The notes beneath the pieces were generated by a model, which saw only the letters and a program-made list of their open reading frames with translations, did not search any database and was not told the DNA's origin. Shown piece after piece: positions 2,052-34,185 of a DNA stretch of 36,433 nucleotides. The translations under genes were made by a program, and so were the position numbers. The stretch spans positions 1-36,433 of the forward strand of contig JAZRCQ010000294.1 in the NCBI GenBank assembly GCA_045659845.1. Direction: 5' to 3'. Source of the DNA: Eubacteriales bacterium (GTDB lineage: Bacteria > Bacillota > Clostridia > Oscillospirales > CAG-272). Positions within the stretch are counted from its first letter, which is position 1, and each line of letters starts with the position of its first letter.

Positions 2052-2483
2052 TCAGAGCTTTTTAATATCGTCCTCGGAGATCATTCTGAAGCCTGCGGCC
2101 GTCAAGGCAGCCTCAGCCACTGCATTGTCCTCCACTCGCAGCACCACGTAGGCATGCCGCTCGGTGCGCGCCATGAAGGCATACATATATTCCACGTTGA
2201 TATCCTCCCGATCCAGCACGGAAAGAGCCTCGGTGAGCTTGCCGGGAGCATCCCCGATCTTCACGCCCACCACGTCGATCACCTTGATCAGATAGCCCTT
2301 TTTCGCAAGCACGGCCTCAGCGGTCTCCGGATCATTCACGATCAGGCGCAGGATTCCGAAATCCTGCGTTTCCGCAATGGAAAGTGCTCTCAGGTTCACT
2401 CCACAATCGGAAAGTGCCTCGGTAACCGATGCCACCGTTCCCTTTTTGTTCTGAACGAACACCGTTAATTGCTTGATTGCCAT
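2052..2483 (-). CDS. ACT-domain protein (tandem ACT, small-ligand/amino-acid-binding regulatory fold)
   Basis: Start moved to MAIKQLTVFVQNKKGTVASV (cat 2481-2483), with an AGGAGA RBS at complement 2491-2496. Two ACT-like repeats are present (LTVFVQNKKGTVA... and VVGVKIGDAPGKL...). The longer ORF-track N-terminus overlaps paaK and has no RBS. Confidence 0.8.
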   Translation of the reverse strand: MAIKQLTVFVQNKKGTVASVTEALSDCGVNLRALSIAETQDFGILRLIVNDPETAEAVLAKKGYLIKVIDVVGVKIGDAPGKLTEALSVLDREDINVEYMYAFMARTERHAYVVLRVEDNAVAEAALTAAGFRMISEDDIKKL

Positions 2484-2499
2484 AGCTGCCTCTCCTTTC

Positions 2500-3810
2500 T
2501 TAAATGAGCTTACGCTTATCGACCACGCGAACGGCCTTGCCCTCGCTTCTTGCAATGCTCTTGGGCGGAACGAGATGCACCAGCGGATTGATGCCCAGCA
2601 TGGTTTTGATCGCATTGGCAAGAGATTTTTCCATCGCCATGATCTCGCTCACCTTATCCGTGAAGCGTTCTGCCGTCATCTCCACGTTCACGTCGAAGGT
2701 ATCGTTGTTCTTCACGCGGTCCACCACGATCTGATAATTGGGCTCATAGCCCTCCTTGAGCAGCACTGTTTCGATCTGGCTGGGGAACACGTTCACGCCG
2801 CGGATGATCAGCATATCGTCGGTTCTGCCCATGGGCTTGGCCATCTTGATCAGCGTGCGGCCGCAGGAGCACTTCTTGCGGGAGAGCACACAAATGTCGC
2901 GGGTGCGATAGCGGAGCAGGGGGAACGCCTCCTTATCCAAGGAGGTGAACACCAGCTCACCCTTGCTTCCCTCGGGAAGCACCTCACCCGTTTCGGGATC
3001 AATGATCTCGGCAAAGAAATGATCCCCGTTGATATGCATGCCGCTCTGCTCACTGCATTCAAAGGCAACGCCGGGGCCGGTGGTCTCGGTGAGGCCGTAG
3101 ATATCGTAGGCCTTGATGCCCAGCAATTTTTCGATGCTTTGGCGCATCTCCTCCGTCCACCGCTCAGCGCAGAAGATGCCTGCCTTCAGCGGCATATCCT
3201 CCGGCCGGTAGCCCTGCTCCTTCAGGCTCTCGCCCAGATAGGCGGCGTAGGAGGGGGTGCAGCAAAGAATGGTGGCATTCAGATCCATCATGAACTGGAT
3301 CTGGCGCTCGGTGTTGCCCGAGGAAAGCGGCAGCGTGAGGCATCCAACCTTATGGGAGCCGCCGTTCAGGCCGGGGCCGCCGGTGAACAGGCCGTAGCCG
3401 TAGGCCACCTGGCAAACGTCCTTCTTCGAGCCGCCAACGGCAACGATCGCGCGGGCGCAGCAATCCTCCCAAAGATCGAGATCCTTCTGCGTGTAGAAGG
3501 CAACCACGCGGCGGCCGGTGGTTCCGGAGGTGGACTGAATGCGAACGCAATCCTCCAGCGGCTTCGCCAACAGACCGTAGGGATAGGCGTCGCGAAGATC
3601 GGCCTTGGAAAGGAACGGAAGCTTGTGGAGATCGTCGATGCTCTGAATATCCTCCGGTCGAACGCCTTTCTGATCCATCAGATCCCGATAGTAGGCAACG
3701 TTTTCATAAACGTGCCTGACCTGCTTGATCAGCTTCTCCGATTGGAGCTTTTTCATCTCCTCACGGGGCATGGTTTCAATTTCCTTTTGGAAATAGCGTT
3801 GCTGTTCCAT
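2500..3810 (-). CDS. paaK: Phenylacetate--CoA ligase (PaaK-family adenylate-forming enzyme)
   Basis: 436 aa. N-terminal MPREEMKKLQSEKLIKQVRHVYENVAYYRDLM...LPFLSKADLRD, the SSGTTGR P-loop (QSTSGTTGRRV), YGLTE and RYRTRD motifs are hallmarks of the PaaK/CoF420-ligase-like subfamily. Confidence 0.85.
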   Translation of the reverse strand: MEQQRYFQKEIETMPREEMKKLQSEKLIKQVRHVYENVAYYRDLMDQKGVRPEDIQSIDDLHKLPFLSKADLRDAYPYGLLAKPLEDCVRIQSTSGTTGRRVVAFYTQKDLDLWEDCCARAIVAVGGSKKDVCQVAYGYGLFTGGPGLNGGSHKVGCLTLPLSSGNTERQIQFMMDLNATILCCTPSYAAYLGESLKEQGYRPEDMPLKAGIFCAERWTEEMRQSIEKLLGIKAYDIYGLTETTGPGVAFECSEQSGMHINGDHFFAEIIDPETGEVLPEGSKGELVFTSLDKEAFPLLRYRTRDICVLSRKKCSCGRTLIKMAKPMGRTDDMLIIRGVNVFPSQIETVLLKEGYEPNYQIVVDRVKNNDTFDVNVEMTAERFTDKVSEIMAMEKSLANAIKTMLGINPLVHLVPPKSIARSEGKAVRVVDKRKLI

Positions 3811-3865: not shown

Positions 3866-4164
3866 AAAACAAAAACGTCCTCCGCATTCCGACAGGGCAA
3901 GGCCCCAAGAACACAGAGGACGAGAAATATTCTTTCCCGTGGTACCACCTCAGTTCGCCGCCACCTCACGGTTGCGACCTTTTCAGGTACTGACATACCA
4001 TAGTTCTATGACGGGAACTCCCGTTGCATCCTACTACGGATCTCTCCGATTCAGCGCACTGCTAACAGAATGAATTCGAGAAGGACGCCCCCTCTGTCTC
4101 GCACCGCCCGACAGCTCTCTCCAGGTTCTTTCCAGCCTACTGGTTTCTGCTCTCCGCATTTGAT
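3866..4164 (-). promoter_or_regulatory. T-box riboswitch, specifier UUC (Phe), leader of paaK-ACT
   Basis: All elements read on the minus strand:
- S-turn AGUA at complement 4138-4141;
- AG bulge AGAGAG at complement 4115-4120;
- distal loop GGUGCGA at complement 4099-4105;
- specifier loop GAA-UUC-A at complement 4071-4077, followed by helix UUCUG pairing with CAGAA;
- T-box motif GAGGUGGUACCACGGG at complement 3937-3952, with antiterminator A1 GAGG/CCUC and A2 ACGGGAAA/UUUCUCGU;
- competing terminator CGUCCUC...GAGGACG + UUUUU at complement 3871-3924. Confidence 0.85.
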
Positions 4165-4301: not shown

Positions 4302-4330
4302 TTGACAAAAAGAGGAAGATATGATATAAT
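4302..4330 (+). promoter_or_regulatory. Sigma-70-type promoter TTGACA-N17-TATAAT for the Leu T-box operon, divergent from the paaK promoter
   Basis: ttgaca (4302-4307), 17-nt spacer ending in tga, tataat (4325-4330). Confidence 0.65.
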
Positions 4331-4336
4331 GCTAAA

Positions 4337-4615
4337 TCATAAACGCGATGATGCGGAATAGTATGCAAAAGGATTCGCCTTCAGAGAATTGCCGGCCGGT
4401 GCGAGGCATGGGAAGAGCTTTGCAGAACTCACCGTTGAGCGGTTGCCATGAAATTGCAGAGTAGTGGCAAACGGGAGCTCCCGTCACAGAGTCAAGATGT
4501 GTCAGCATCGAAGGTGCATCCCGCATCGGGATGAAGAAGAGTGGTACCGCGGAAACACGAGGATCGGCGTTTTCGTCTCTTTGAAGCAACAAAGAGATGG
4601 AAGCGTGTTTTTGTT
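4337..4615 (+). promoter_or_regulatory. T-box riboswitch, specifier CUC (Leu)
   Basis: - K-turn GAUGA at 4347-4351;
- S-turn AGUA at 4360-4363;
- AG bulge AGAGA at 4383-4387;
- distal loop GGUGCGA at 4398-4404;
- specifier loop GAA-CUC-A at 4425-4431, flanked by helix UGCAAAAG/CUUUGCA above and GCGG/CCGU below;
- T-box motif AGAGUGGUACCGCGG at 4538-4552;
- terminator stem 4568-4605 (core UCUCUUUG/CAAAGAGA) followed by UUUUU at 4608-4612. Confidence 0.88.
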
Positions 4616-4660: not shown

Positions 4661-6049
4661 ATGAGACAGATCAACGTAGCCGACATCACCCTCAAAAAGC
4701 TTTCGGAGGATCGCGCAGTTTCCCTGCTGTTCCGCGAGAAATCCGCTATTGCCAATTGCGCCGACCGTCTCGGTGCAAACTGCATCGAGCTGCCCCCCGT
4801 GAAGAACGTGCGCGAGGATTCTATCATCTATAAGACCATTGCGAAAAATGTTCGGAGCGCCGCGCTGGCCATTCCCGTTGGCTACACCGCCGACGACGTT
4901 GCCGTTGCATGGGAATGCATCCGCGAGGCCAAGGCTCCCCGTCTGCAGGTGGAGCTTCCCGTTTCCACCATTCAAATGGAATACACCTATCACGTGAAGC
5001 AATCCAAAATGCTGGAAAAGATCGGCGAGCTGGTTGCCGCCGCAAAAGCTCTCTGCTCCGACGTGGAGTTCTCCGCGCTGGATGCCACCAGAGCCGACGA
5101 GGAATTTCTGATCGCCGCCGTGCGGGAGGCCGAGGCGAAGGGCGCATCCGTCATCACGATCTGTGATAACGCCGGTGCATCCACTCCCGATCAGATCGGC
5201 GAGCTCACTCAAAAGGTGAAGGCGACCGTGTCCGTTCCCGTGTACGTTCAAGTGTCCGATCGCGTGAGCATGGCAGTTGCATCCGCGTTTTCCGCCATTG
5301 CCTGCGGTGCCGACGGACTCAAGAGCGCCATGGCGGGCAAGGATGCTCTGCTGACGGGGGCACTCTCCGACGCCATGAATGCCTGCGGCGCGCGGCTCGA
5401 CGCGGCAATCAGCCTGAACAGCACCAATATCCACGCCAGCATCGAGGATCTGAAGGCAGGCATCCGCCATGAGGCCGATGAGACCGAGTCCTCTGAAAGC
5501 GAGCAGAAGCGGATCCTGCTGGATTCCGATTCCACTCTGGCGCAGGTGGCCGACACGGCCGCTCTTCTGGGCTACGAGCTTTCGGATTCCGATATTGGAA
5601 ACGTTTATAAGGCGCTGTCGCAGGTCTGTGCGCGCAAGGGTGCCGTTGGAGCCAAGGAGCTGGAGGCTCTGATCGCAAGCTCCGCCATGCAGGCTCCCTC
5701 CACCTATCATTTTGAAACCTACACCACCACCAGCAGCAATATCTCCAGCGCAATGACGCAGATCGTTCTGAAGAACAACAATGAATGCATCTGCGGCGTC
5801 AGCGCAGGCGACGGCCCCATCGATTCCGCCTTCCGCGCCATCGAGCAATGTGTGGGCCATCACTATGAGCTGGACGATTATCAGGTGCAGTCGGTCACCG
5901 AGGGCAAGGAGGCTCTGGGCTCCGCCTTGGTGAAGCTTCGCTACAACGGCAGGCTCTATTCCGGAAACGGCACCTCCACCGATATCATCGCCGCCAGCAT
6001 CCGCGCCTATATCAACGCACTCAACAAGATCGTTTTTGAGGAGGCATGA
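4661..6049 (+). CDS. 2-isopropylmalate synthase-like protein with degenerate catalytic motifs and an intact LeuA C-terminal regulatory domain (probable pseudoenzyme)
   Basis: 462 aa, with AAAGGAG RBS at 4645-4651. The HMGL-like TIM-barrel layout is recognisable (FSALDATRAD, ITICDNAGAS). The DTTLRDGEQ motif reads ADITLKKLSED, and the HxH metal site reads VQVSDRVSMAVAS. The C-terminal GDGPIDSAFRAIEQ...VTEGKEALGSALVKLRYNGRLYSGNGTSTDIIAASIRAYINALNK matches the LeuA allosteric/dimerisation domain. Confidence 0.7.
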   Translation: MRQINVADITLKKLSEDRAVSLLFREKSAIANCADRLGANCIELPPVKNVREDSIIYKTIAKNVRSAALAIPVGYTADDVAVAWECIREAKAPRLQVELPVSTIQMEYTYHVKQSKMLEKIGELVAAAKALCSDVEFSALDATRADEEFLIAAVREAEAKGASVITICDNAGASTPDQIGELTQKVKATVSVPVYVQVSDRVSMAVASAFSAIACGADGLKSAMAGKDALLTGALSDAMNACGARLDAAISLNSTNIHASIEDLKAGIRHEADETESSESEQKRILLDSDSTLAQVADTAALLGYELSDSDIGNVYKALSQVCARKGAVGAKELEALIASSAMQAPSTYHFETYTTTSSNISSAMTQIVLKNNNECICGVSAGDGPIDSAFRAIEQCVGHHYELDDYQVQSVTEGKEALGSALVKLRYNGRLYSGNGTSTDIIAASIRAYINALNKIVFEEA

Positions 6050-6055
6050 TCCAGC

Positions 6056-8515
6056 ATGAAAATCGTTTTTTCCACTAAAAACGTGAGCCGAGCCTCCTTT
6101 CTCGACACCTGCCGCATTGCTCACGACTACGGCTTCGAGGGCTTTGAGATCTATGATGCCGTTGGCGAACGGAGCGTTCACTCCGACAGCGTTCTGAGAC
6201 GCGACAAAATGGCCGATGCCAAAAGAAAGCTCGTCAACCGAAATCTGGCCGTTTCCGCGCTTCGGATGCCCCATCCCGTGGAGCATGCGGAAACCACAGC
6301 GGAGCTGATCCAAAAATATGTGGATATGGCCGCCACGGCAGGCATTGAAAACGTGATCGTTCGTGCAGAAGCCCCCGTTTCCTTTGCGCTTCTGGATGAA
6401 AAAATGGCTGCGGCGATCAAGCGGGCGGAGCAAGCAGGAGTTGGCATCCTGCTGGAAACCGTTGGCAGTCTGGCGAGAACCGAAAACGTGATCGCTATCA
6501 TCAATCACTTCGCCTCTGCCGCCATCGGAGCCTCCTGGAACGTTCGCGGCACCTATTTCGATGCGGGCGAAACCGCTGAGGTGACCATCAAAAATCTGGG
6601 CGCCTACATCCGCTACGTTCGTCTCGGAGACATGAAGGACGGCAAGACCGTTCTGATCGGCGAGGGCGATCTGGACGTGAAAAAGCTCCTCAACGCCCTT
6701 TCCTCTCTCAACTACGAGGGCTTCATCTGCGCCGCATGGAACGAGGAGATCAACGATGCCGACATCGTGTTGACTCATTTTACCAATTACATTTCTGCGC
6801 TGGGACGTGAAAAAAAGTCCTTTGATCACGCATACTATAATCGGGCGAAAACCGGCACCTTCGTATGGAAAAAATACGATGTGATCGAGGCCACCTTCGC
6901 CGACGTGCTGGACACCATGGCCGAACGGTATCCCGATCAGTATGCCTTCAAGTACCCCACGCTGGACTACACCCGAACCTACGAGCAGTTCCGCCGCGAC
7001 GTGGACGAATGCGCCGCCGCCCTCATTTCCTTGGGCGTGAAGGCCGGTGATCACGTGGCGATCTGGGCCACCAACGTGCCCCAATGGTTCATCACCTTCT
7101 GGGCCACCACCAAGATCGGCGCCGTGTTGGTTACCGTGAACACCGCCTATAAGATCCACGAGATCGAATATCTGCTCAAGCAATCCGACACCCACACCCT
7201 CGTGATGGTGGAATATTGCAAGGATATCAACTATAAGGAGATCATCGAGCAGCTCTGTCCCGAGCTGAAGGCGCTCCATCCGGGCGATCCCCTCTATTCC
7301 AAGAATCTTCCCTTCCTGCGCAACGTTGTGACCGTTGGCTTCGGCATGGACGGTTGTCTCACCTGGGAGCAAATGCTCTCCCGCTCTGCCCTCGTGCCCC
7401 GTGAGGAGGTTCGCCGCCGCGCTTCCCTTGTGAAGCCCGACGACGTTTGCAATATGCAATACACCTCGGGAACCACCGGCTTCCCCAAGGGCGTGATGCT
7501 CACCCATCGCAACATCGTGAACAACGGAAAGACCATCGGCGACAGAATGGATCTCTCCACGGCCGATCGCATGATGATCCAAGTGCCCATGTTCCATTGC
7601 TTCGGCATGGTGCTTTCCATGACCTCCATGATGACTCACGGCGGCACGCTCTGCCCCATTCCCTATTTCTCGCCCAAATCCTCTCTTGCCTGCGTGAACG
7701 ATGAGCGCATCACCTGCTTCAACGGTGTGCCCACCATGTTCATTGCTATGTTCAATCATCCCGATTTTGCCAAGACCGACTTTTCCTATATGAGAACCGG
7801 AATCATGGCAGGAGCAAACTGCCCCGCCGATCTGATGCGCCGCGCATCCGAGGAAATGAATATGCGGGAGATCATCTCCGTGTACGGCCAGACCGAGGCC
7901 TCCCCCGGATGCACCATGGGCGAGGTGAACGAGGATCTGGACCATCGCGTGGAAACCGTTGGCAGTGCCTTCCCCGGCGTGGAATGCAAGATCATTGATC
8001 CGGAAACCGGCGACGAGCTTCCCGACGGCGAAAGCGGCGAGTTCGTGGCACGCGGCTTCAACATCATGAAGGGCTACTACAAAATGCCTGAGGCCACGGC
8101 GCAGGCCATCGATGCCAACGGCTGGCTCCACTCGGGCGACATCTGCATGAGAACCCCCGACGGCTACTATAAGGTGACGGGCCGCCTCAAGGATATGATC
8201 ATCCGCGGCGGAGAAAATCTCTATCCTCGCGAAATCGAGGAATTCTACCTCACAAATCCCAAGATCCGCGACGTTCAGGTGGTTGGCGTGCCCGACGAGA
8301 CCTACGGCGAGGAATGCTGTGCATGGGTGATCCTGCACAAGGGAGAAACCGCCGATGAAAAGGAAATGAAGGCCTTCGGTGCCGCATCCATTGCCAAGCA
8401 CAAGGTGCCCAGATACTTCCTCTTCGTGAATGAATTCCCCATGAACGCCGCCGGAAAGATCCTGAAATACAAGATGCGTGAGGAATCCGCTGAAAAGCTG
8501 GGATTGAAAAAATAA
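6056..8515 (+). CDS. Fusion protein: N-terminal xylose-isomerase-like TIM barrel (AP endonuclease 2 family) + C-terminal AMP-forming acyl-CoA synthetase
   Basis: 819 aa, with a GAGGAGG RBS. Residues ~1-250 (GFEGFEIY..., GILLETVG, YIRYVRLGD, GEGDLD, GFICAAWN) resemble sugar-phosphate isomerase/epimerase-type TIM barrels. Residues ~270-819 carry the ANL motifs YTSGTTGFPKGV, YGQTE, GWLHSGD, GRLKDMIIRGGENLYP and the terminal GKILK. Confidence 0.78.
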   Translation: MKIVFSTKNVSRASFLDTCRIAHDYGFEGFEIYDAVGERSVHSDSVLRRDKMADAKRKLVNRNLAVSALRMPHPVEHAETTAELIQKYVDMAATAGIENVIVRAEAPVSFALLDEKMAAAIKRAEQAGVGILLETVGSLARTENVIAIINHFASAAIGASWNVRGTYFDAGETAEVTIKNLGAYIRYVRLGDMKDGKTVLIGEGDLDVKKLLNALSSLNYEGFICAAWNEEINDADIVLTHFTNYISALGREKKSFDHAYYNRAKTGTFVWKKYDVIEATFADVLDTMAERYPDQYAFKYPTLDYTRTYEQFRRDVDECAAALISLGVKAGDHVAIWATNVPQWFITFWATTKIGAVLVTVNTAYKIHEIEYLLKQSDTHTLVMVEYCKDINYKEIIEQLCPELKALHPGDPLYSKNLPFLRNVVTVGFGMDGCLTWEQMLSRSALVPREEVRRRASLVKPDDVCNMQYTSGTTGFPKGVMLTHRNIVNNGKTIGDRMDLSTADRMMIQVPMFHCFGMVLSMTSMMTHGGTLCPIPYFSPKSSLACVNDERITCFNGVPTMFIAMFNHPDFAKTDFSYMRTGIMAGANCPADLMRRASEEMNMREIISVYGQTEASPGCTMGEVNEDLDHRVETVGSAFPGVECKIIDPETGDELPDGESGEFVARGFNIMKGYYKMPEATAQAIDANGWLHSGDICMRTPDGYYKVTGRLKDMIIRGGENLYPREIEEFYLTNPKIRDVQVVGVPDETYGEECCAWVILHKGETADEKEMKAFGAASIAKHKVPRYFLFVNEFPMNAAGKILKYKMREESAEKLGLKK

Positions 8516-8538: not shown

Positions 8539-8970
8539 ATGTATTTTGACGATCTTCAAATCGGAATGACGGTGGACATTGATTCCACCGTCATCGAAAA
8601 AGAAAAAATGATGGAGTTTGCCCGCGTTTACGATCCGATACCGCTGCATACCGATGAGGAATATGCTCGGTCTACCCCCTTCGGCGATCTGATCGCCCCC
8701 GGCATGATGTCGTTTATGTCCCTGTGGGCAAAGTATCTGGAGGTCGATTTCTTCGGCAAGGAGCTTTTGGCCGGAAAATCCACCAGGATCGAATGGCTCA
8801 AGCCCGTTTATGCCAACGACAGCTTATCGGGCAGGGCCACCATCACGGCATTGACGAAGAGAAATGACAAAAACGGTTTGGCCGAAATCTCCATCTATGC
8901 CTACAATCAAAAGGGAGAGCCGGTGCTGACAAACGTTACGGAGGCGATCGTAAAGTGCAAGCCGAGCTGA
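8539..8970 (+). CDS. MaoC-like (R)-specific enoyl-CoA hydratase/dehydratase, hotdog fold
   Basis: 143 aa with a GGAGG RBS. FARVYDPIPLHTDEEYARSTPFGDLIAPGMM matches the MaoC dehydratase motif (D-x-N/P-P-x-H-x-D ... G-x-I-A-x-G). Confidence 0.75.
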   Translation: MYFDDLQIGMTVDIDSTVIEKEKMMEFARVYDPIPLHTDEEYARSTPFGDLIAPGMMSFMSLWAKYLEVDFFGKELLAGKSTRIEWLKPVYANDSLSGRATITALTKRNDKNGLAEISIYAYNQKGEPVLTNVTEAIVKCKPS

Positions 8971-9025: not shown

Positions 9026-9054
9026 TTGACAAATCCGGTTTTCCGTGCTATAAT
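9026..9054 (+). promoter_or_regulatory. Sigma-70-type promoter TTGACA-N17-TATAAT for the third T-box
   Basis: ttgaca at 9026-9031, 17-nt spacer, tataat at 9049-9054. Confidence 0.65.
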
Positions 9055-9060
9055 TTTTTA

Positions 9061-9348
9061 AAATTTGAATATCAAAAAAGACTGTGATGAAGAGGATCGG
9101 AAAGCAATGCTTCCAGAGAGTTGTCGGGCGGTGCGAGACAATAACAGAGACTTCCATATGATCTATCACTTCTGAGTCGAAGGACCGAACCCGGGGCATT
9201 CCCCTGTCAGTAGACTCCTTCCGTATTGCTGCGTCAAAGCAAAGGGCTTGTTGGAGTCCGGAAAGTGACGGAATTGAATTCCGTAATTTGAGTGGTACCG
9301 CGGGTGAATAGCTCGTCTCAAGGGTTTTCTTTTGAGACGAGTTTTTTG
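9061..9348 (+). promoter_or_regulatory. T-box riboswitch, specifier probably AUC (Ile); assignment uncertain
   Basis: - K-turn GUGAUGA at 9084-9090;
- AG bulge AGAGAG at 9115-9120;
- distal loop GGUGCGA at 9130-9136 (the block gtcgggcggtgcgagaca is identical to the Phe T-box);
- T-box motif GAGUGGUACCGCGGG at 9290-9304, with A1 UUGAG/CUCAA;
- terminator CUCGUCUCA...UGAGACGAG + UUUUUU at 9311-9348.
The 3' side of Stem I reads ...AUG AUC U AUC A CUUC UGAGUC. AUC-A (9165-9168) sits directly before the 4-bp helix (GAAG/CUUC) and the K-turn, the same layout as in the other two leaders. No clean AGUA/GAA S-turn is visible. Confidence 0.8.
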
Positions 9349-9413: not shown

Positions 9414-11714
9414 ATGGATTACAGCTTGAAAGAGGTTGCAAGAAGAATTAGGGATCTACGCGAGGCCAAGGGCTACTCCCCTGCCGAGCTTGCAAGACTC
9501 ACCGGCGTTTCCCTTGAGGATTACACGCTTTTGGAGGAAGGAAACACCGACTTCAGCTTCACCTTCATTTATAAATGCGCAAAGGCCTGCGGCGTTGAGG
9601 TGGTTGACATTCTGGAGGGAAGCAGCACCACCCTCACCTCCTTCGCCATCACCCGCAAGGGCGAAGGCCTCAAGATCCTGAAGCAGCACGGCGTGGAATA
9701 CAACAATCTCGCACCCAAGTTCAAGGAGAAGCTCGCCGAGCCCTTCCTCGTGAAATTCCCTTACATCCCCGAGGAGCAAAACGTGCCGATGAAGCTCAAC
9801 TCCCACAACGGTCAGGAATTCGACGTGATCGTGAAGGGCTCGCTGAAGGTGCAGATCGGAAGCCACGTGGACGTGCTTCATGAGGGTGATTCCATTTTCT
9901 ATAACAGCTTGATCCCCCACGGCATGATCGCCGCAAGCGAGGGCGGTTGCGAATTCCACGCGGTGGTTCTCAATCCGCAGAACGGTCAGGTGAGCGAGGA
10001 ATATCCCGAGGCGCCCTACGTTGCGGCGAGAGTGGCCGAAAAGGCAGAGGAAACCGCCACGGTTGCCGATCAGTTCGTAACCTCCACCTACGATGAAAAC
10101 GGCGTTTTCAACGGCATTTCCTTCAAAAACGACGATCAATTCAACTTCGCCTTCGACTGCGTGGACGCCATTGCGAAAAAGAATCCCGATAAGCTTGCAA
10201 TGCTTTGGGTTGGCAACGATAAGAGCGACCGTCGCTTCACCTTTGCCGACATGAAGAAATATTCTGCCAAGACAGCAAACTATTTCGAGTCTCTCGGCAT
10301 CAAAAAGGGCGACACCGTGATGCTGGTGCTGAAGCGTCATTACCAATTCTGGTTCTGCATGCTGGCACTGCATAAGATCGGCGCCATCGCGATCCCCGCC
10401 ACCAATCAGCTGGTGGAGCATGACTTCGCTTACAGATATCAGGCCGCCAAGGTGAAGGCGATCGTTTGCACCGCCGATGGCGACGTTTCCTCCGAGGCCG
10501 AAAAGGCCGCCGCTCAGTTCCCCGGCCTGCTCAAGGTGCTTGTTGGCGGCAAGAAAGAAGGCTGGAATGATTTCAACGTGGAAATGGAACGCTTCAGCAC
10601 CCATTATTACCGCACCGAGCAAACGCCCTGCGGCAATGATCCCATGCTGATGCTCTTCACCTCGGGCACCACGGGCTATCCCCGCATCGCCACCCACTCC
10701 TATAAATATGCGCTGGGCCACTACCCCACCGCCAAGCATTGGCACAACGTCAAAGCCAACGGCCTGCACTTCACCATCTCCGATACGGGATGGGGCAAGG
10801 CGCTCTGGGGCAAGCTCTACGGTCAGTGGCTCTGCGAGGCCGGGATCTTCACCTACGATTTCGATCGCTTCCGCTCCGAGGATATTCTGCCCATGTTCAA
10901 GAAATACGGCATCACCACCTTCTGCGCTCCTCCCACCATGTATCGCTTCTTCATCAAGGAGGATCTCTCCAAATATGATCTTTCCTCCATTGAATATGCC
11001 ACCACGGCAGGCGAGGCGCTGAACCCCGAGGTGTTCAACCAGTTCAAGAAGGCCACCGGACTCACCATCATGGAGGGCTTCGGGCAAACCGAAACCACCC
11101 TTTCCATTGCAAACTTCGTTGGCTCCACGCCCAAGATCGGATCGATGGGTAAGCCCAGCCCGCTCTACGACGTGGTGGTGCTGGATCCCGACGGCAACGA
11201 ATGCAAGACCGGCGACACGGGCGAGATCTGCATCCGCACAAAGGATCATATTCCCTGCGGTCTCTTCATCGGCTACTATCTGGATGAGGAAAAAACGCGC
11301 GACGCCTGGTACGACGGCTATTATCACACCGGCGATCAGGCCACCATGGACGAGGACGGCTATCTCTGGTACGTCGGCCGCATCGACGATGTGATCAAGT
11401 CCTCCGGCTACCGCATCGGGCCCTTTGAGATCGAAAGCGTGATCATGGAGCTTCCCTACGTGCTGGAATGCGCCATCACGCCCGTTCCCGACGAGGTGCG
11501 CGGTCAGATCGTGAAGGCCACCATCGTGCTGACAAAGGGCACCGTTGGCACCGACGCGCTGAAAAAGGAGATTCAGGAGTACGTGAAAACGCACACCGCT
11601 CCCTATAAGTACCCCCGCATCGTTGAGTTTGTGGAGGAGCTTCCCAAGACGATCAGCGGAAAGGTGCGCCGCGTGGAGATCCGCAAAAACGATCTGGAAA
11701 AAATGAAAAAATAA
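9414..11714 (+). CDS. Fusion protein: XRE-type HTH + cupin domain fused to a medium-chain (ACSM/MACS-like) AMP-forming acyl-CoA synthetase
   Basis: 766 aa. Residues 1-~65 form an HTH_3 domain (LREAKGYSPAELARLTGVSLEDYTLLEEG). Residues ~90-190 form a cupin (NSHNGQEFDVIVKGSLKVQIG...GDSIFYNSLIPHGM). Residues ~230-766 carry FTSGTTGYPR, TISDTGWGKALWGKLY, EGFGQTE, YHTGDQA, GRIDDVIKSSGYRIGPFEIE and the terminal SGKVRR, typical of medium/short-chain acyl-CoA synthetases. Confidence 0.8.
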   Translation: MDYSLKEVARRIRDLREAKGYSPAELARLTGVSLEDYTLLEEGNTDFSFTFIYKCAKACGVEVVDILEGSSTTLTSFAITRKGEGLKILKQHGVEYNNLAPKFKEKLAEPFLVKFPYIPEEQNVPMKLNSHNGQEFDVIVKGSLKVQIGSHVDVLHEGDSIFYNSLIPHGMIAASEGGCEFHAVVLNPQNGQVSEEYPEAPYVAARVAEKAEETATVADQFVTSTYDENGVFNGISFKNDDQFNFAFDCVDAIAKKNPDKLAMLWVGNDKSDRRFTFADMKKYSAKTANYFESLGIKKGDTVMLVLKRHYQFWFCMLALHKIGAIAIPATNQLVEHDFAYRYQAAKVKAIVCTADGDVSSEAEKAAAQFPGLLKVLVGGKKEGWNDFNVEMERFSTHYYRTEQTPCGNDPMLMLFTSGTTGYPRIATHSYKYALGHYPTAKHWHNVKANGLHFTISDTGWGKALWGKLYGQWLCEAGIFTYDFDRFRSEDILPMFKKYGITTFCAPPTMYRFFIKEDLSKYDLSSIEYATTAGEALNPEVFNQFKKATGLTIMEGFGQTETTLSIANFVGSTPKIGSMGKPSPLYDVVVLDPDGNECKTGDTGEICIRTKDHIPCGLFIGYYLDEEKTRDAWYDGYYHTGDQATMDEDGYLWYVGRIDDVIKSSGYRIGPFEIESVIMELPYVLECAITPVPDEVRGQIVKATIVLTKGTVGTDALKKEIQEYVKTHTAPYKYPRIVEFVEELPKTISGKVRRVEIRKNDLEKMKK

Positions 11715-11800: not shown

Positions 11801-12358
11801 TTATAATTTATCGAACCGTTTCATAACTCTGACGAGCCGCGGCCGATTATAGCGCTGAAGGATCACAAAAACGGAATCGATCAGCATGGCACAAACCGAC
11901 GTTGTAATCATTGCCGCCGTACCGCCCAGAAGCGGTGCAAAGGCGATCGGCAGAAGGCTCAGCACCATGATCACCTCGTGAATGATCTCCGCCTGACAGG
12001 TTGCGCCGATCAATTCCCGAACGGTTTTTCGATGGGGATCAAACGTTTCAGGATCGTAGGTTGGAACGTATTTTTTCCATCTTCGCACTCGGATCAGCTT
12101 ATATAGCTTATCCTCAAAGCTTTTTTCGCGAAACCATCCGTTTGTGTGGTCGGCTTGATTTTTCATGACCAGATCCACAATCGTTCCAACGGCTAGCCGC
12201 ATGGCAAAATGATATAGTGTTACTCCAACCGTGACGGTGAGCGCTTCCGCAACGGCATTTTGAGAAAGGAGGCATACAGGCAGAAGTCCCGCAAATCCAA
12301 GCGCAAGGAATACGGTTGTTAAAATCATTCGTTTTCTCAATGGCTTACCCTCTTCCAT
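11801..12358 (-). CDS. Small polytopic membrane protein, possibly glycosyl-4,4'-diaponeurosporenoate acyltransferase (CrtO)-like family
   Basis: 185 aa with 4 predicted TM segments. The RVRRWKKYVPTYDPETF ... QAEIIHEV ... LQRYNRPRL pattern resembles that family from memory. GC content is lower than in neighbouring genes. Confidence 0.4.
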   Translation of the reverse strand: MEEGKPLRKRMILTTVFLALGFAGLLPVCLLSQNAVAEALTVTVGVTLYHFAMRLAVGTIVDLVMKNQADHTNGWFREKSFEDKLYKLIRVRRWKKYVPTYDPETFDPHRKTVRELIGATCQAEIIHEVIMVLSLLPIAFAPLLGGTAAMITTSVCAMLIDSVFVILQRYNRPRLVRVMKRFDKL

Positions 12359-12637
12359 TTTTGATTTGCCAAGCTCATTATATCACATTTTTGTTAACAA
12401 ATCAAAGCATAGCCTTGTATATCACCCGCAACTTGTTGCACGATGAAATCCGCCTCTCTTTATCCTTGCGAAGCAAGATTTCATCGCATAGCGATTTCAT
12501 CCACGAAGTGGATTTATCCCGTCCGTAAGGACGGATTTAACTGAAAAGGATACAAAATTCTAATGGGTGCATTTTAGGGTTAATGGGTGCATAAACGGAT
12601 GAATTTTTCAAAAATGGGGGCAATTTAACGATAGGTT

Positions 12638-14065
12638 TCAAAAATTATTATTTTTTGATTTGTTAAGTTGATTTTTGATTATTTCATACGCCACTTTATC
12701 GTCTTTAAATTTGTAAAGTTTGAATTTTGACCAAGTTGTTTGAATAATTATCCTTTTATTGTATTCAACTGCAAGGATATTTTGATAATCACAATTAAAC
12801 GAAATATTGTATCCATCGTGCTTTAATCCATTCTCATATATTTCAATGCATTTAGAATCGCTATATCCGGATTTCTTATCCCTTGTATAACCTATCAGAG
12901 ATGAAATCAATACAAGTAATGATACACACAAAGAAGCTCCGAGACCCATGATTAAATACACAATCCATTTCATTTGTGGATTTAAAAGTTGGATTATTAC
13001 CCATATTCCATTATTAAACAATAATATTGAGATCAAAATTTGAATCATCAAACGCCACTGATGAATTGTGCTATATTTATGCTTATATATCAAGTCACCG
13101 TAATCATGCTCATACTCATCAAAATCATCATATATAGGATATTGATCGAAATGAAGACCATATTCTTTACATCTATTTTGAAATAGCAACACTTTGTCTG
13201 CTAATTTGTTTTGACGTTTTCTGTTATTTACATATTTACAAAAACTATAAACGATATCATTGCTGAAAATGAGACAACGTTGCATTATATCATCATTCTC
13301 TATATACCCTAACACATTTCTTTGCTTGAAATCTAAAATATCATTAATAGAATTATTAATTTCAATCCAACCGGAATTGGTTTTGATTGTAAGATTATTT
13401 TCAGAAACGCTATATTCAAATTTTTTGATATCGATTTTTCTCTCAAATATAGACTTAAACTCTACATGTCTTGCTATTAATATTTTTTCTTCTGCACCTG
13501 ACATAGGGGCAAAAGAAAATTCTATACAGCCATCAGCTATACGCATATCACAATGAGAAAATATTTGCCCAAACTCCAAAGAGCTTTTGACGATACCTTT
13601 ACATTTTAAAACTATGAAGGAGCCCCAAGATGTATCCAAAAGTATCTCAAGTGTATTATTCTCTTCGTTTATTCCTAAAACATATCCATCGTGGAATGAA
13701 CCCGAATTTAAATCCAATGCATCAAAATCGGATGTTTTCTCAATTTTTTTAAATTCGCAAAGGCTCTCCGCGCGCAACATCCCCTTTGCTTCATCGAGCA
13801 TTTTTGAGGTGTATTGCTTTCTCTTGATTGTTCTAAAAATATTCTTATCGTTCCAATATGATTTAAACTCGCTATTATTAATAGAAAAATCATCAGTATC
13901 AAAATCTATAAAAAGAACGGTATATCTGTTATCTCTACAAACATCAACAACAATCAACTCGGCAAAAGAGCTGTCAAAAACAACAGCTTTGCTCGGATAT
14001 TTCATAGATACGGCAAAAACAGGCGAATGGTATACACAGCCGTTAGACAGTATTTTTGCGAGCAT
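12638..14065 (-). CDS. Hypothetical protein, AT-rich orphan; soluble N-terminal region, TM hairpin, then a small C-terminal PH-like (bPH/DUF304-type) module
   Basis: 475-aa uninterrupted ORF in very AT-rich DNA, Asn/Lys/Ile/Phe-rich. AAGGAGAAAA RBS. It has its own TTGAAA-N17-TATAAT promoter. Two hydrophobic helices (WRLMIQILISILLFNNGIWVIIQLL, WIVYLIMGLGASLCVSLLVLISSLIGY) are followed by ~80 aa. I recognise no family for the first ~330 aa. Confidence 0.6.
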   Translation of the reverse strand: MLAKILSNGCVYHSPVFAVSMKYPSKAVVFDSSFAELIVVDVCRDNRYTVLFIDFDTDDFSINNSEFKSYWNDKNIFRTIKRKQYTSKMLDEAKGMLRAESLCEFKKIEKTSDFDALDLNSGSFHDGYVLGINEENNTLEILLDTSWGSFIVLKCKGIVKSSLEFGQIFSHCDMRIADGCIEFSFAPMSGAEEKILIARHVEFKSIFERKIDIKKFEYSVSENNLTIKTNSGWIEINNSINDILDFKQRNVLGYIENDDIMQRCLIFSNDIVYSFCKYVNNRKRQNKLADKVLLFQNRCKEYGLHFDQYPIYDDFDEYEHDYGDLIYKHKYSTIHQWRLMIQILISILLFNNGIWVIIQLLNPQMKWIVYLIMGLGASLCVSLLVLISSLIGYTRDKKSGYSDSKCIEIYENGLKHDGYNISFNCDYQNILAVEYNKRIIIQTTWSKFKLYKFKDDKVAYEIIKNQLNKSKNNNF

Positions 14066-14093
14066 ATAGATTTTCTCCTTTTGATTTTTATTT

Positions 14094-14122
14094 ATTATAT
14101 CACAAAATCACAATATTTTCAA
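14094..14122 (-). promoter_or_regulatory. Promoter TTGAAA-N17-(TGa)TATAAT of the AT-rich orphan gene
   Basis: Minus strand gtaTTGAAAatattgtgattttgtgaTATAATaaa. The -35 box is at complement 14117-14122 and the -10 box at complement 14094-14099. Confidence 0.5.
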
Positions 14123-14339: not shown

Positions 14340-14424
14340 TGGTGCGGAAAACGGGACTTGAACCCGTACGGTGTGAACCACACGCCCCTCAAACGTGCGC
14401 GTCTGCCAGTTCCGCCACTTCCGC
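14340..14424 (-). tRNA. tRNA-Leu (anticodon GAG), class II with long variable arm, CCA encoded
   Basis: Reverse complement reads GCGGAAGTGGCGGAACTGGCAGACGCGCACGTTTGAGGGGCGTGTGGTTCACACCGTACGGGTTCAAGTCCCGTTTTCCGCACCA.
- Acceptor stem GCGGAAG/UUUCCGC;
- anticodon stem CACGU/GCGUG with loop UU-GAG-GG;
- T arm ACGGG-UUCAAGU-CCCGU;
- discriminator A. Confidence 0.92.
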
Positions 14425-31394: not shown

Positions 31395-31943
31395 TCACAG
31401 CCTTACGACTGTGTAGCCATGCCTCATTTCCGGAAGGATGCGCTCCGTGAGATCCTCCCGACGGATCCGCAGGCTGGACGTGTTGATGCAGGGATGCATG
31501 CCGATCCACTCCGATTCCAGCACGTCGCCGTCGATCAGAAGGCGCACTCTGCCCTCGGTGTCATTCATCAACCCCAGCACGCTGGCCGATCCGGGCGTGC
31601 ATCCAAGCAGCTGCTCCATATCCTCGGGGGAGGCAAAGGAGAGGCGCGAGGATTGGATCTGCGCGGAGAGATCCTTTGTGTGAAACACCTTATCTCCCCG
31701 AAGCATCAGCAGATAAAAGGCGGTTTTCTGACGGTTGCAAAGCAAGAGATTCTTGCAAATGGCCGCCTCCAGCACGCGATCGATCTCCCGACAAACCTCC
31801 ATCGTCATAGCAGGCGCATGGTCGATCCGCTCATATTCGATCCCCAGCTCCTCCAGAAGCGCATAGCATTTCTGCTCTCTGATCAGTCGCTCCGACAGCT
31901 CCTTCGGCGCGCCCTGCTCTCTTTTCAGCTCCTGCCCGCTCAT
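31395..31943 (-). CDS. YbaK/ProX-type aminoacyl-tRNA trans-editing (deacylase) domain protein
   Basis: Start set at MSGQELK (cat 31941-31943), forming an ATGA overlap with the metA stop (31940-31942). ...[29 protein letters not shown]....[24 protein letters not shown] is typical of prolyl-tRNA-synthetase-associated editing domains. Confidence 0.7.
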
Positions 31944-32857
31944 TGGATCTTGGAAATATCGTAGGGCGTGGTTTGATAAACGAAATAGTTCAGCCAATTG
32001 CAATAAAGCAGATTGGCATGAGAACGCCACGTTACCATCGGTGCCTGACTCGGATCGTTGTTGGGATAGTAATTCTTCGGGATCTTGATGGGCTTTCCCT
32101 CGGAAACGTCGCGATCGTATTCGCTCTTGAGCGTATGGGGATCATATTCGGGATGCCCCGTGATGAAGATCTGCTTGCCGTTTTCCGTTGCCATAGCGAA
32201 AATGCCCGCCTCCTCGGAGGAAGCCAGGATCTTCAGGCCGGGAACGGCTCTTGCGGCGGCCTCGTCGATACCCGTGTGACGGGAATGAGGCACCATAAAG
32301 CGATCATCAAAGCCGCGGAACAGAATAGAGCGCTTGTATTCCACCTCATGCGGGAACACGCCGAACATCTTCTCCCCCAGCGGAACCTTGTTCACGCCGA
32401 AGTGATAATAGAGTCCTGCCTGCGCGCCCCAGCAGATATGAAAGGTGCTATGCACGTGGTGACGGCTCCACTCCATGATCTCGCAAAGCTCCTCCCAATA
32501 TTCAACCTCCTCGAAGGGCATTTGCTCCACGGGAGCTCCCGTGATGATCATGCCGTCGAAATTGCGATGCTTCACGTCATCGAAGGTTTTATAGAAGGAG
32601 AGCAGATGCTCCTTGGACACGTTTTTGGATTGATGGCTCTTGGTGTGGATCAGCTCCAGCTCCACCTGCAGAGGAGTGTTGCCCAAAAGACGGGAAAACT
32701 GCGTTTCGGTCTCGATCTTTTTCGGCATCAGATTCAAAATCAGGATCTTCAAGGGGCGGATATCCTGCGTGATCGCGCGCGTTTCGGTCATCACGAAGAT
32801 GTTTTCATCGGTTAAGACCTTGACTGCGGGCAGATCGTTCGGTATTCTAATAGGCAT
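31940..32857 (-). CDS. metA: Homoserine O-acyltransferase (MetA family; acetyl- or succinyl-transferring)
   Basis: 305 aa. [23 protein letters not shown]...[24 protein letters not shown]...PLQVE..L........HF..CWGAQA match MetA along the full length. Confidence 0.93.
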
Positions 32858-32872
32858 TGCTTCAACTCCAAA

Positions 32873-34156: not shown

Positions 34157-34185
34157 GTTCTTCTCTCCTTTATTTCGGTTGTTCT

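Follow-up and report, generated by a model that had tools for sequence, protein, structure and literature searches.

The 2-isopropylmalate synthase LeuA (IPMS, EC 2.3.3.13, PRK00915 type; structures 3ewb, 3rmj, 1sr9 and 3fig) combines a TIM barrel, an accessory region whose subdomain I forms a cap over the active site and binds acetyl-CoA, and, at the C terminus, a regulatory domain made up of a pair of beta-beta-beta-alpha units with Gly-rich loops capping the helices. The same regulatory fold is used by CimA to bind isoleucine. Methylthioalkylmalate synthase (MAM, 6e1j) is a neofunctionalised LeuA paralogue in which catalysis was retained while the regulatory domain disappeared. Separate sensing polypeptides encoded beside the enzyme that they control are represented by ACT subunits (for example IlvN/IlvH, the small subunit of AHAS), and in the HisZ-HisG(short) ATP phosphoribosyltransferase the histidine-sensing subunit, HisZ, is a catalytically dead paralogue of HisRS. 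On the physiological side, it has long been observed that anaerobes of the rumen and gut make branched-chain amino acids from branched-chain volatile fatty acids, which they require or use. In rumen microbes, leucine is obtained from isovalerate by carboxylation and subsequent amination (PMC7356843). The short branched-chain acid:CoA ligase MbcS of S. aureus, which feeds fatty-acid synthesis and not amino-acid synthesis, takes 2-methylbutyrate and isobutyrate, whereas it handles isovalerate very poorly (PMC10026030), and therefore a separate isovalerate ligase is to be expected. A search of the open-access literature returned no paper identifying the activating ligases or their regulation, only general pathway statements (PMC7356843) and the work on MbcS. 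Likewise, no described LeuA pseudoenzyme, no bacterial isovalerate-CoA ligase and no genes for isovalerate reductive carboxylation tied to the module analyzed here were retrieved in the literature search.

The gene studied here lies in a window of 36,433 nt, the whole stretch of DNA that was analyzed, and encodes a LeuA paralogue that we call pLeuA (Table 1). This protein shares with LeuA/IPMS the TIM-barrel fold, the C-terminal domain with its Gly-rich helix-capping loops and a clear sequence ancestry, and both are linked to leucine supply and to a Leu T-box. By contrast, pLeuA is about 40–50 residues shorter and is devoid of the substrate Arg, the Asp/His/His(/Asn) metal site, the His of TSDIH, and subdomain I with its catalytic His. 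The conservation is also inverted, the regulatory domain being more conserved than the barrel, and the gene is never found beside leuBCD but always beside an acyl-CoA ligase fusion. MAM, the top Foldseek match of pLeuA, underwent the opposite change. The proposed role of pLeuA resembles that of the ACT subunits, from which it differs by having the LeuA regulatory fold and a whole degenerate catalytic barrel. It would also be analogous to HisZ in its logic (a dead paralogue, a retained amino-acid site and feedback by the end product on the enzyme that opens the route), although the folds and the partner enzyme are unrelated and the complex, the binding and the effect of pLeuA are putative. Relatives of MbcS fused to HTH and cupin domains occur in the pLeuA clusters, but MbcS belongs to an ANL subfamily other than that of the pLeuA partner.

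Table 1. Features of the pLeuA locus, with positions counted from the first letter of the window.
Feature	Positions	Strand	Evidence or remark
ACT-domain-pair protein (ORF)	2052–2621	-	Pfam ACT_8
PaaK-type phenylacetate-CoA ligase	2500–3810	-	NCBIfam PaaK, 514 bits
Third T-box leader, specifier UUC (Phe), divergent; drives PaaK and the ACT gene	3913–4163	-	87.1 bits, E 1.4e-18
Promoter of the Phe T-box unit	4199–4171	-	Promoter scan
Leu operon promoter, sigma-70 type (TTGACA, 17 nt, TATAAT, extended TG)	4302–4330	+	12/12 consensus match
T-box leader, specifier CUC (Leu), with terminator hairpin at 4567–4606 and U-tract	4339–4606	+	RF00230
pLeuA, catalytically degenerate LeuA paralogue	4661–6049	+	462 aa, ATG start
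pLeuA aa 1–226, HMGL-like (LeuA-type) TIM barrel lacking the metal ligands	4661–5338	+	Pfam, Foldseek, residue mapping
pLeuA aa 227–330, remnant of the accessory region	5339–5650	+	Alignment, span lengths, pLDDT
pLeuA aa 331–462, LeuA allosteric/dimerisation domain	5651–6046	+	Pfam, conservation
819-aa fusion of a xylose-isomerase-like TIM barrel and an ANL acyl-CoA ligase	6056–8515	+	Pfam, NCBIfam
Fusion N-terminal barrel, about aa 1–250	6056–6805	+	AP_endonuc_2
Fusion ANL ligase part, about aa 277–819	6884–8512	+	AMP-binding
MaoC/hotdog-fold protein, final gene in the Leu T-box operon	8539–8970	+	Pfam
Perfect promoter of the Ile T-box unit	9026–9054	+	Promoter scan
Second T-box leader, specifier AUC (Ile), terminator at 9310–9343	9075–9343	+	86.9 bits (under the gathering score of 93), E 1.6e-18
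HTH-cupin-acyl-CoA synthetase fusion (MbcS-like)	9414–11714	+	Pfam; NCBIfam AcylCoAsynMbcS, 447 bits
tRNA-Leu (anticodon GAG), reads the CUC specifier	14340–14424	-	ARAGORN, Rfam
2-oxoacid:ferredoxin oxidoreductase, runs off the end of the window	35414–36433	-	Pfam, gene order

Two Pfam domains were detected in pLeuA, HMGL-like (PF00682; aa 7–226, E 1.9e-27) and LeuA_dimer (PF08502; aa 331–457, E 2.9e-31, model positions 4–130 of 131). The AF2 model (pLDDT 92.5) has the LeuA fold, and its barrel superposes on LeuA 3ewb with a TM of 0.91 and an rmsd of 1.7 Å. This full-length, two-domain match and the confidence of the model are far beyond chance. The NCBIfam equivalog models of LeuA score the protein at only 178–239 bits, below their cut-offs of 532–748; the best of them, NF002086, gave 238.5 bits (cut-off 532, E 1e-70) and TIGR00973 gave 219 bits (cut-off 599).

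The sequence-only reading had claimed that this gene lost the catalytic motifs of LeuA and retained the structural motifs FSALDATRAD and ITICDNAG together with the C-terminal regulatory domain, and on each of these points it was right. Alignments to 3ewb and to the genuine LeuA proteins P0257 and P0269 placed D8-I-T-L-K12-K13-L-S-E of pLeuA on DTTLRDGEQ, with K12 at the substrate Arg and K13 at the metal Asp. The TSDIH motif is VSTIQ105, in which the His is replaced, and HCHND is Q197-V-S199-D, without the two metal His, so that K12, K13, Q105, Q197 and S199 stand in place of Arg, Asp, His, His and His, respectively. Additionally, GERAGN is changed to GKDALLTG with a deletion of four residues, and LGKHSGR to LDSDSTL. 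The deletion of accessory subdomain I has removed the SGIHQDG motif: about 33 residues are gone and the span is 28 residues instead of the 61 of LeuA. In line with this, HCS_D2 was detected by the Pfam search in P0257 but not in pLeuA, where residues 272–281 form an acidic linker modelled with low confidence (pLDDT <50). Both structural motifs are present in the translation, as are GDGPIDSAF and the C-terminal STDIIAASIRAYINALNK. A shifted alignment hiding the catalytic residues was discarded, because the phmmer alignment to 3ewb, the MAFFT alignment with genuine LeuAs and the 1.7 Å superposition agree. K12 takes the place of the enolate-stabilising Arg of LRDG, which is Arg80 in M. tuberculosis LeuA. 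The R80K substitution in that enzyme is tabulated in a review among those destroying activity (PMC10464499), and the accessory domain of LeuA has been reported as essential for catalysis (PMC9860122). From these sequence features, pLeuA is predicted to be a non-catalytic paralogue of LeuA, devoid of 2-isopropylmalate synthase activity.

The same picture was obtained throughout the family, which splits at 50% identity into more than 100 clusters (one of them alone has 521 members) and occurs in 224 species genomes. It is unannotated, its members being named “hypothetical protein” or, wrongly, “2-isopropylmalate synthase” in the databases. None of the Asp/His/His metal ligands is kept in 99 of 111 diverse members, and no member keeps more than one. 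Where LRDG has its Arg, 34 members have R, 32 have K and 17 have C. Since none of the 111 restores the site, a misplaced alignment is also ruled out at this scale, and the pseudoenzyme with a retained regulatory domain envisaged earlier is a family-wide feature. A decaying pseudogene was ruled out as well, given that no internal stops were found in 80 orthologues and that dN/dS is about 0.09. As expected of a subunit with HisZ-like logic, the catalytic residues are lost while the gene is under purifying selection (overall dN/dS 0.085). Proteins with a LeuA_dimer domain (50–59% identical to that of pLeuA) and foreign N-termini (MFS, Laminin_G_3, 7TMR-HDED or Response_reg) were left out of the family; they are probable chimeras of assembly or gene calling.

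The regulatory domain is the most constrained part of pLeuA. Mean pairwise identity in the family is 0.56 in this domain and 0.35 in the barrel, and the dN/dS values are 0.03 and 0.10, respectively. In genuine LeuA, both regions have a pairwise identity of 0.44, although comparisons made with three or four “true” LeuAs are rough because P0255 and P0241, among the first controls used, are atypical sequences; P0255, in which RDGEQ is replaced by CEGER, nevertheless adjoins a LeuC-like gene. Between pLeuA and genuine LeuA, identity is 36–39% in the regulatory domain and 28–29% in the barrel. Two Gly-rich loops, G383-D-G-P-I-D388 and G435-x-G-x-S-T-D441, are near-invariant in the family and common to genuine LeuA. 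They cap the N-termini of helices 386–398 and 442–461 and, as G383-x-G-P-x-D and G435-x-G-x-S-T-D, correspond to the loops that form the amino-acid pocket in LeuA.

The genetic context was examined in the window and in its relatives. As had been proposed, pLeuA is the first gene of an operon under a Leu T-box. RF00230 matched at 4339–4583 with 124.1 bits (gathering score 93, E 2.7e-27), the specifier stands in the context GAA-CUC-A, and the promoter lies 9 nt upstream of the T-box. Of 77 orthologous upstream regions, 73 have CUC as the aligned specifier; the T-box is absent in distant pLeuA lineages.

The downstream gene encodes the 819-aa ligase fusion recognized in the earlier reading, and Pfam assigns AP_endonuc_2 and AMP-binding domains to it. 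The ligase motifs A3, A5, A8 and A10 are intact. The N-terminal domain (model pLDDT 88.8) resembles sugar-epimerase-type barrels with a TM of about 0.7 and 10–20% identity; Foldseek returned generic barrels from which no specific function is assignable, and the PDB sequence search gave only a weak match to MJ1311. This domain was found only inside such fusions (175 matches), and some lineages retain canonical metal motifs in it. Across the lineages compared, the ligase domain is 65–75% identical, the N-domains are 26–45% identical, and the pLeuAs are about 32–42% identical to that of the window. Judged by these identities, the ligase appears to be the constant catalytic core.

The fusion lies directly downstream of pLeuA in essentially all of the 80 genome loci with enough DNA, in most of them with a gap of 1–8 nt. 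The pair persists in lineages only 29–49% identical, where the stop codon of the first gene often overlaps the start codon of the second, and a search starting from the fusion likewise finds pLeuA immediately upstream; the pairing held in all the lineages covered. pLeuA and the fusion constitute a fixed two-gene module, often translationally coupled. Two enzymes acting in the same pathway would also be expected to have adjacent genes. Beside the pair, an Amidohydro_2 gene recurs; the MaoC gene was detected in only 7 of the 80 loci, the neighbor being variable elsewhere.

Three T-box-gated ligase units are present in the window. The Phe T-box precedes PaaK and the ACT gene, the Leu T-box precedes pLeuA and the fusion, and the Ile T-box precedes the MbcS-like ligase. 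The T-box(Phe)-PaaK-ACT unit, whose ACT-pair ORF probably starts near 2495, parallels the T-box(Leu)-pLeuA-ligase unit, and its Phe T-box layout recurs in two other loci (L053 and L067). The HTH-cupin-synthetase is a candidate 2-methylbutyrate/isobutyrate-activating enzyme. At the end of the window, the gamma subunit of a 2-oxoacid:ferredoxin oxidoreductase (OFOR) is encoded at 35414–35947 on the reverse strand (Pfam POR, E 3.8e-35); the ORF lying 5′ of it and overlapping it (35944–36324, same strand) has no Pfam match and may correspond to the beta subunit, as suggested by the gene order in L081 and L083. VOR-type OFORs, branched-chain aminotransferases and MbcS-like ligases are neighbors of the pLeuA-fusion pair in relatives. 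Complete delta-alpha-beta-gamma OFOR sets adjoin pLeuA in L081, L083, L088 and L013. In L083 and L088, the pair, an Aminotran_4 gene, the four OFOR subunits and HTH-cupin-ligase genes form one same-strand cluster, and in L081 and L013 the ligase and the OFOR are present together.

This context points to the salvage of isovalerate to leucine by reductive carboxylation, a pathway that the sequence-only reading had not named. Its hypothesis that pLeuA could be a leucine-sensing subunit of the downstream ligase is strengthened by the pairing, the coupling and the Leu T-box. The explanation that we favor, tentatively and as a little short of an even chance, is that pLeuA is the leucine-sensing subunit of an isovalerate-activating ligase in the isovalerate-to-leucine route. 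The case for a leucine sensor is that catalysis has been lost, the regulatory domain has been kept, a ligase is adjacent and the operon is induced by leucine starvation. The assignment of isovalerate as the ligase substrate is suggested by context, namely the T-box specificity, and by exclusion, MbcS being poor on this acid. Motif conservation suggests that pLeuA may bind leucine, although the same fold serves CimA for isoleucine, and the genomic adjacency with overlapping stop and start codons suggests that it may form a physical complex with the ligase; its effect on the ligase would presumably be negative.

According to this proposal, uncharged tRNA-Leu(GAG) would act on the CUC T-box to let transcription enter the operon. 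The ligase half of the fusion would convert isovalerate to isovaleryl-CoA, which would be reductively carboxylated to 2-oxoisocaproate by the VOR-type OFOR and then converted to leucine by the branched-chain aminotransferase. pLeuA would dimerise through the LeuA regulatory domain and accept leucine in the retained pocket between two helix N-termini, and its barrel, possibly docked on the N-terminal barrel of the ligase, would throttle the enzyme. Such inhibition would provide fast feedback in addition to control by the T-box, which is slower.

Alternatively, the ligase or a ligase-OFOR assembly could depend on pLeuA as an obligate subunit, structural or activating, or as a scaffold, with the regulatory domain serving dimerisation only and without any sensing of leucine; pLeuA might even hold isovaleryl-CoA for hand-over. 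The invariant pairing and translational coupling, the purifying selection on the barrel and the double use of the LeuA_dimer domain as a dimerisation domain would suit this role. HMGL-like barrels are known to form channelling complexes with partner enzymes, and the aldolase-dehydrogenase complexes 1nvm and 4jn6 were among the Foldseek matches. However, the most invariant residues of pLeuA are the helix-N-cap loops of the amino-acid pocket, beyond what dimerisation needs, and the lowest dN/dS (0.03) is that of the regulatory domain, which makes this alternative unlikely.

Rather less likely is that the module serves another precursor or end, such as the activation of 4-methylvalerate, with an indirect link to the Leu T-box and with pLeuA still non-catalytic. 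ANL specificity is unreadable from sequence, and the match of the fusion to the PRK12583-like NCBIfam model (668 bits, below the cut-off; generic “fatty acid CoA ligase family”) leaves room for such a substrate, as do the MaoC hydratase-like gene within the operon of this genome and the recurring Amidohydro_2 gene. Against it stand the conserved CUC specifier (73/77), the VOR-type OFOR and branched-chain aminotransferase carried by the clusters, the scarcity of MaoC (7/80 loci), and the parallel Phe/PaaK and Ile/MbcS-like units, which agree with a scheme of one acid for each amino acid.

An enzyme with a remodelled, metal-independent site, handling for instance an acyl-CoA or a 2-oxoacid and possibly cooperating with the N-terminal barrel of the ligase, is slightly less probable still. 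D8, T10, S102, D141, R144 and D169, which lie on the catalytic face where the barrel strands end C-terminally, are at least 90% conserved in the family, typical replacements occur (Q105 in 70/111 members, S199 in 64/111, D/N200 in 105/111) and the barrel dN/dS is 0.10, which would suit a ligand-binding or catalytic role of the barrel. But the barrel residues under strong conservation are the ones that genuine LeuA conserves as well, a pattern suggesting retention of a scaffold, whereas the positions contacting metal and substrate in LeuA are highly variable (E/K/Q/N/D/S at 13 and E/Q/S/R/C/A at 197 in the family alignment). Moreover, subdomain I is deleted, and the route formed by ligase, OFOR and aminotransferase requires no further step. 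Finally, heterodimerisation with genuine LeuA through the shared domain (35–39% identical, LeuA being a domain-swapped dimer; PMC9860122), as a decoy or anti-feedback subunit modulating de novo leucine synthesis, is very improbable, since it leaves the invariant coupling to the ligase fusion unexplained and, as a weak point, no second LeuA-type gene was found with genuine LeuA P0257 as query in the window and 1.18 Mb of DNA flanking 88 loci, a search of flanks and not of whole genomes.

Returning to the leucine-sensor explanation, a broader version, held somewhat more loosely, may be proposed for the whole family: pLeuA would sense leucine for a dedicated isovalerate-CoA ligase, and the pair would be the committed, feedback-controlled entry step of the isovalerate-to-leucine route in gut and rumen anaerobes. 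More generally, T-box-gated, acid-specific ligases might each have their own amino-acid-sensing module: PaaK with the ACT pair for Phe, the MbcS-like ligase with HTH and cupin for Ile or Val, and the barrel-ligase with pLeuA for Leu.

If true, this would be a natural case of an enzyme turned into a sensor, in which the allosteric domain of LeuA and a dead barrel are re-used on an unrelated enzyme, the mirror image of the plant MAM synthases. The mis-annotation of pLeuA as 2-isopropylmalate synthase can distort reconstructions of leucine prototrophy in gut MAGs, and the module could provide a compact leucine-responsive regulatory part for engineering. It would also offer gene candidates for the use of branched-chain volatile fatty acids by rumen and gut anaerobes.

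The gene at 4661–6049 was confirmed as a real ORF, and its product, the LeuA paralogue pLeuA, clearly descends from LeuA. The presence of a complete LeuA_dimer domain bore out the sequence-only reading that the regulatory domain had been kept, and the proposed position of pLeuA at the head of a Leu-T-box operon was also confirmed. The scores of pLeuA against the NCBIfam LeuA equivalog models were only 178–239 bits, with cut-offs of 532–748. Its residues were mapped by a phmmer alignment to the Listeria LeuA 3ewb and by MAFFT with two genuine LeuAs from the databases, P0257 and P0269. The loss of the catalytic motifs claimed from the translation was observed in these alignments, and every motif then quoted was found. 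DTTLRDGEQ is replaced by D8-I-T-L-K12-K13-L-S-E, TSDIH by VSTIQ105, PDTVG by CDNAG, HCHND by Q197-V-S199-D, LGKHSGR by LDSDSTL, and GERAGN by GKDALLTG with a four-residue deletion. At the place of accessory subdomain I, which carries the SGIHQDG motif in LeuA, pLeuA lacks around 33 residues (span of 28 versus 61 in LeuA), and HCS_D2 was not detected in pLeuA by the Pfam model that detects it in P0257.

In M. tuberculosis LeuA, the metal ligands are Asp81, His285 and His287, and the substrate is bound by Arg80. The substitution R80K is listed in a review table as inactivating this enzyme (PMC10464499), and the accessory domain of LeuA is reportedly needed for catalysis (PMC9860122). The AF2 model of pLeuA was confident (pLDDT 92.5), its barrel superposed on 3ewb with a TM of 0.91 and an rmsd of 1.7 Å, and the full-length model matched M. 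tuberculosis LeuA entries. Since the model is confident and superposes on LeuA, an alignment artefact was excluded as the origin of the motif loss, and alignment and superposition together upheld the loss of the catalytic residues. Judged from its sequence, pLeuA fails the catalytic tests that define LeuA/IPMS membership.

Features of the window and of related loci (L-numbers, homologous loci in other genomes)
Feature	Stretch	Position	Strand	Details
Phe T-box	window	3913–4163	-	specifier UUC; ahead of PaaK phenylacetate-CoA ligase and ACT-pair gene
Promoter	window	4302–4330		sigma-70 type, perfect
Leu T-box	window	4339–4583		specifier GAA-CUC-A; 124 bits
Terminator hairpin of Leu T-box	window	4567–4606
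pLeuA	window	4661–6049	+	462 aa; ribosome-binding site, then ATG at 4661
HMGL-like barrel	pLeuA	aa 7–226		Pfam, E 1.9e-27
LeuA_dimer, complete	pLeuA	aa 331–457		Pfam, E 2.9e-31
Fusion	window	6056–8515		N-terminal half, xylose-isomerase-like barrel (AP_endonuc_2); C-terminal half, ANL acyl-CoA ligase (PRK12583-like, 668 bits)
Fusion N-domain	window	6056–6805		SWNVRGT, YVRLGD, CAAWNEE at metal motifs
MaoC/hotdog gene	window	8539–8970		after fusion
Ile T-box	window	9075–9323	+	specifier AUC; ahead of MbcS-type HTH-cupin-acyl-CoA synthetase
HTH-cupin-ligase	window	9414–11714	+	about 760 aa
HTH-cupin-ligases	L013	4255–6585; 6938–9211	-
HTH-cupin-ligase	L088	1–3369
Low-GC island	window	about 12000–14100		34% GC versus about 55% elsewhere
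475-aa ORF	window	12638–14065	-	weak PIN7 match only
tRNA-Leu(GAG)	window	14340–14424	-	8 kb downstream of operon
Methionine-pathway genes	window	31940–34240	-	HTS homoserine O-acyltransferase, Cys_Met_Meta_PP enzyme
Methionine-pathway genes	L081	9893–12103		directly downstream of pLeuA-fusion pair
Amidohydro_2/TatD-like gene	window	34186–35127	-
Amidohydro_2/TatD-like gene	L013	13904–14758
Amidohydro_2/TatD-like gene	L088	11902–12705
Amidohydro_2/TatD-like gene	L089	3493–4293
OFOR gamma subunit	window	right end
Fusion gene with in-frame stops	L084	2968–4533
P0255 gene	L091	2005–3516		503 aa

Among 8,000 candidates scored, 5,514 database relatives of pLeuA were found at E ≤1e-5, and relatives were encoded on 224 stretches of a one-genome-per-species collection. 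The 80 stretches kept, with relatives 73–83% identical to pLeuA, all belonged to Clostridia MAGs of the herbivore gut (among others Acutalibacteraceae, Oscillospiraceae and Congzhengia). Beyond these, more than 100 clusters of 453–497 aa, 29–49% identical to pLeuA, emerged when representatives at 50% identity were searched exhaustively; LeuA-length proteins (~503–516 aa) began at about 180–210 bits in this search. The only names given to the family in the databases were "hypothetical protein" and "2-isopropylmalate synthase". No internal stops were found among the close orthologues.

The fusion, an 819-aa protein, begins 6 nt after pLeuA, and its ligase motifs A3, A5, A8 and A10 are intact. 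It was the next gene in essentially every one of the 80 species loci with enough downstream DNA, with a gap of 1–8 nt in most, and was more conserved than pLeuA (84–91% versus 72–83% identity). The T-box core motif was present in 75 of 77 upstream regions, and the aligned specifier was CUC in 73. The fusion was again the next gene beside the members only 29–49% identical (L081, L083, L084, L086, L087, L088 and L092/L093), often so close that stop and start codons overlap. In the reverse direction, searches begun from fusion fragments (Faecousia, Lachnospiraceae) found pLeuA directly upstream.

Across lineages, the ligase domain is 65–75% identical, while the N-terminal barrel of the fusion is only 26–45% identical and pLeuA about 32–42% identical to the window protein; it therefore seems that the function held constant lies in the ligase together with the LeuA regulatory domain. 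The N-domain was not found outside this fusion. Of the four canonical metal ligands of this domain, three are lost in the window's clade (D to N162, H to R189, E to A/W), so that both barrels of the module look non-catalytic there; the N-domains of L081, L083 and L086 keep WDMHH/WDFHH, H-x-H-[LV]-[KR]-D and SLEW/SLEL. In L084, the fusion gene reads through several in-frame stop codons, two of which, near the N-terminus, sit at Trp of relatives such as L086 (MKLSFSTYG*DNYE*YKF versus ...NGWDAFNW...). This suggests an organism reading TGA as Trp (genetic code 4).

Two further T-boxes, each with a perfect promoter, came to light in the window when Rfam was scanned at higher sensitivity (87 bits versus a gathering score of 93, E about 1e-18). 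With these Phe and Ile T-boxes beside the Leu unit, the window therefore holds three T-box-gated, amino-acid-specific acyl-CoA ligase units within 10 kb. A candidate sensor module is present in every unit: an ACT pair, the LeuA regulatory domain or a cupin. Phe T-boxes were also located ahead of PaaK and ACT in L053 and L067. The Ile-unit ligase is unusual in joining an XRE-type HTH, a cupin and an MbcS-like acyl-CoA synthetase (MbcS, methylbutyryl-CoA synthetase); the DNA-binding domain hints that this metabolic ligase doubles as a regulator. Such proteins often occur as two tandem paralogues beside a CbiA-like ATPase and a four-subunit 2-oxoacid:ferredoxin oxidoreductase (OFOR).

The gene order in L083 is pLeuA, fusion, Aminotran_4, CbiA-like protein, four-subunit OFOR and HTH-cupin protein, and in L088 two HTH-cupin-ligases, CbiA-like protein, OFOR, Aminotran_4, pLeuA, fusion and Amidohydro_2. 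OFOR lies directly upstream of pLeuA in L081, and in L013 an Ile T-box precedes two HTH-cupin-ligases and OFOR, divergent from the Leu T-box, pLeuA and fusion. The Amidohydro_2/TatD-like gene was found beside the pair or OFOR in several lineages. For the ORF overlapping upstream of the OFOR gamma subunit in the window, no Pfam match was obtained.

A ligase, a VOR-type OFOR and a branched-chain aminotransferase together lead from a branched acid through its acyl-CoA and 2-oxoacid to the amino acid. Rumen microbes are known to make leucine by carboxylating isovalerate and then aminating the product (PMC7356843). The MbcS of S. aureus, which accepts 2-methylbutyrate and isobutyrate as substrates, performs very poorly with isovalerate (PMC10026030), so that isovalerate would be expected to have a ligase of its own. 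The most economical mechanism we infer has pLeuA as a leucine-binding allosteric subunit of a putative isovalerate-CoA ligase, the fusion. It would add fast feedback inhibition on top of T-box control, serving the ligase as HisZ serves HisG, and its mode of action would resemble that of known regulatory subunits of the pseudoenzyme or ACT type.

A role of pLeuA as a pure scaffold or activating subunit is the alternative that survives best, although it is unlikely. Conservation within the family is highest in the regulatory domain, with a mean pairwise identity of 0.56 (barrel 0.35, linker 0.25), compared with 0.44, 0.44 and 0.36, respectively, in a small LeuA set; the dN/dS of this domain is 0.03 (barrel 0.10, linker 0.11). 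Near-invariant residues include G383-D-G-P-I-D388 and G435-x-G-x-S-T-D441, loops directly preceding helices 386–398 and 442–461 in the model. That the fusion ligase takes a different acid is improbable; the fusion is the sole ligase under Leu T-box control. A remodelled enzyme is likewise doubtful: in a 111-sequence alignment, no Asp/His/His metal ligand was left in 99 members and at most one in all 111, with the former metal-Asp position (E/K/Q/N/D/S) and first-His position (E/Q/S/R/C/A) both variable. It is very improbable that pLeuA is a partner of genuine LeuA.

Other LeuA derivatives were also detected. In P0235, P0244, P0247, P0248 and P0265, a LeuA_dimer 50–59% identical to that of pLeuA follows unrelated N-terminal parts (among them MFS_1, Response_reg, 7TMR-HDED, MBOAT and Laminin_G_3). 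These proteins probably arose as chimeras of assembly or gene calling; were they genuine, the regulatory domain of LeuA would count as a sensor module in wide re-use. P0255 is LeuA-like with all three LeuA domains, but CEGER replaces RDGEQ and HxQ replaces HxH; its gene lies just upstream of one whose product is LeuC-like by eye, and P0255 may represent a further LeuA lineage that is atypical or degenerate. In the window, tRNA-Leu(GAG) is the exact decoder of the T-box CUC codon. The low-GC island directly adjoining this gene probably stems from the integration of a mobile or defence element. The methionine-pathway genes lie downstream of OFOR, and their linkage with these amino-acid supply genes recurs in L081.

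The searchable literature yielded no account of a LeuA derivative of this kind or of the pLeuA-fusion module. If the proposed role holds, pLeuA would be a paralogue-derived allosteric pseudoenzyme. These results correct the systematic mis-annotation of its family as 2-isopropylmalate synthase, and the module marks candidate genes for a long-known, genetically ill-defined pathway of gut and rumen anaerobes.
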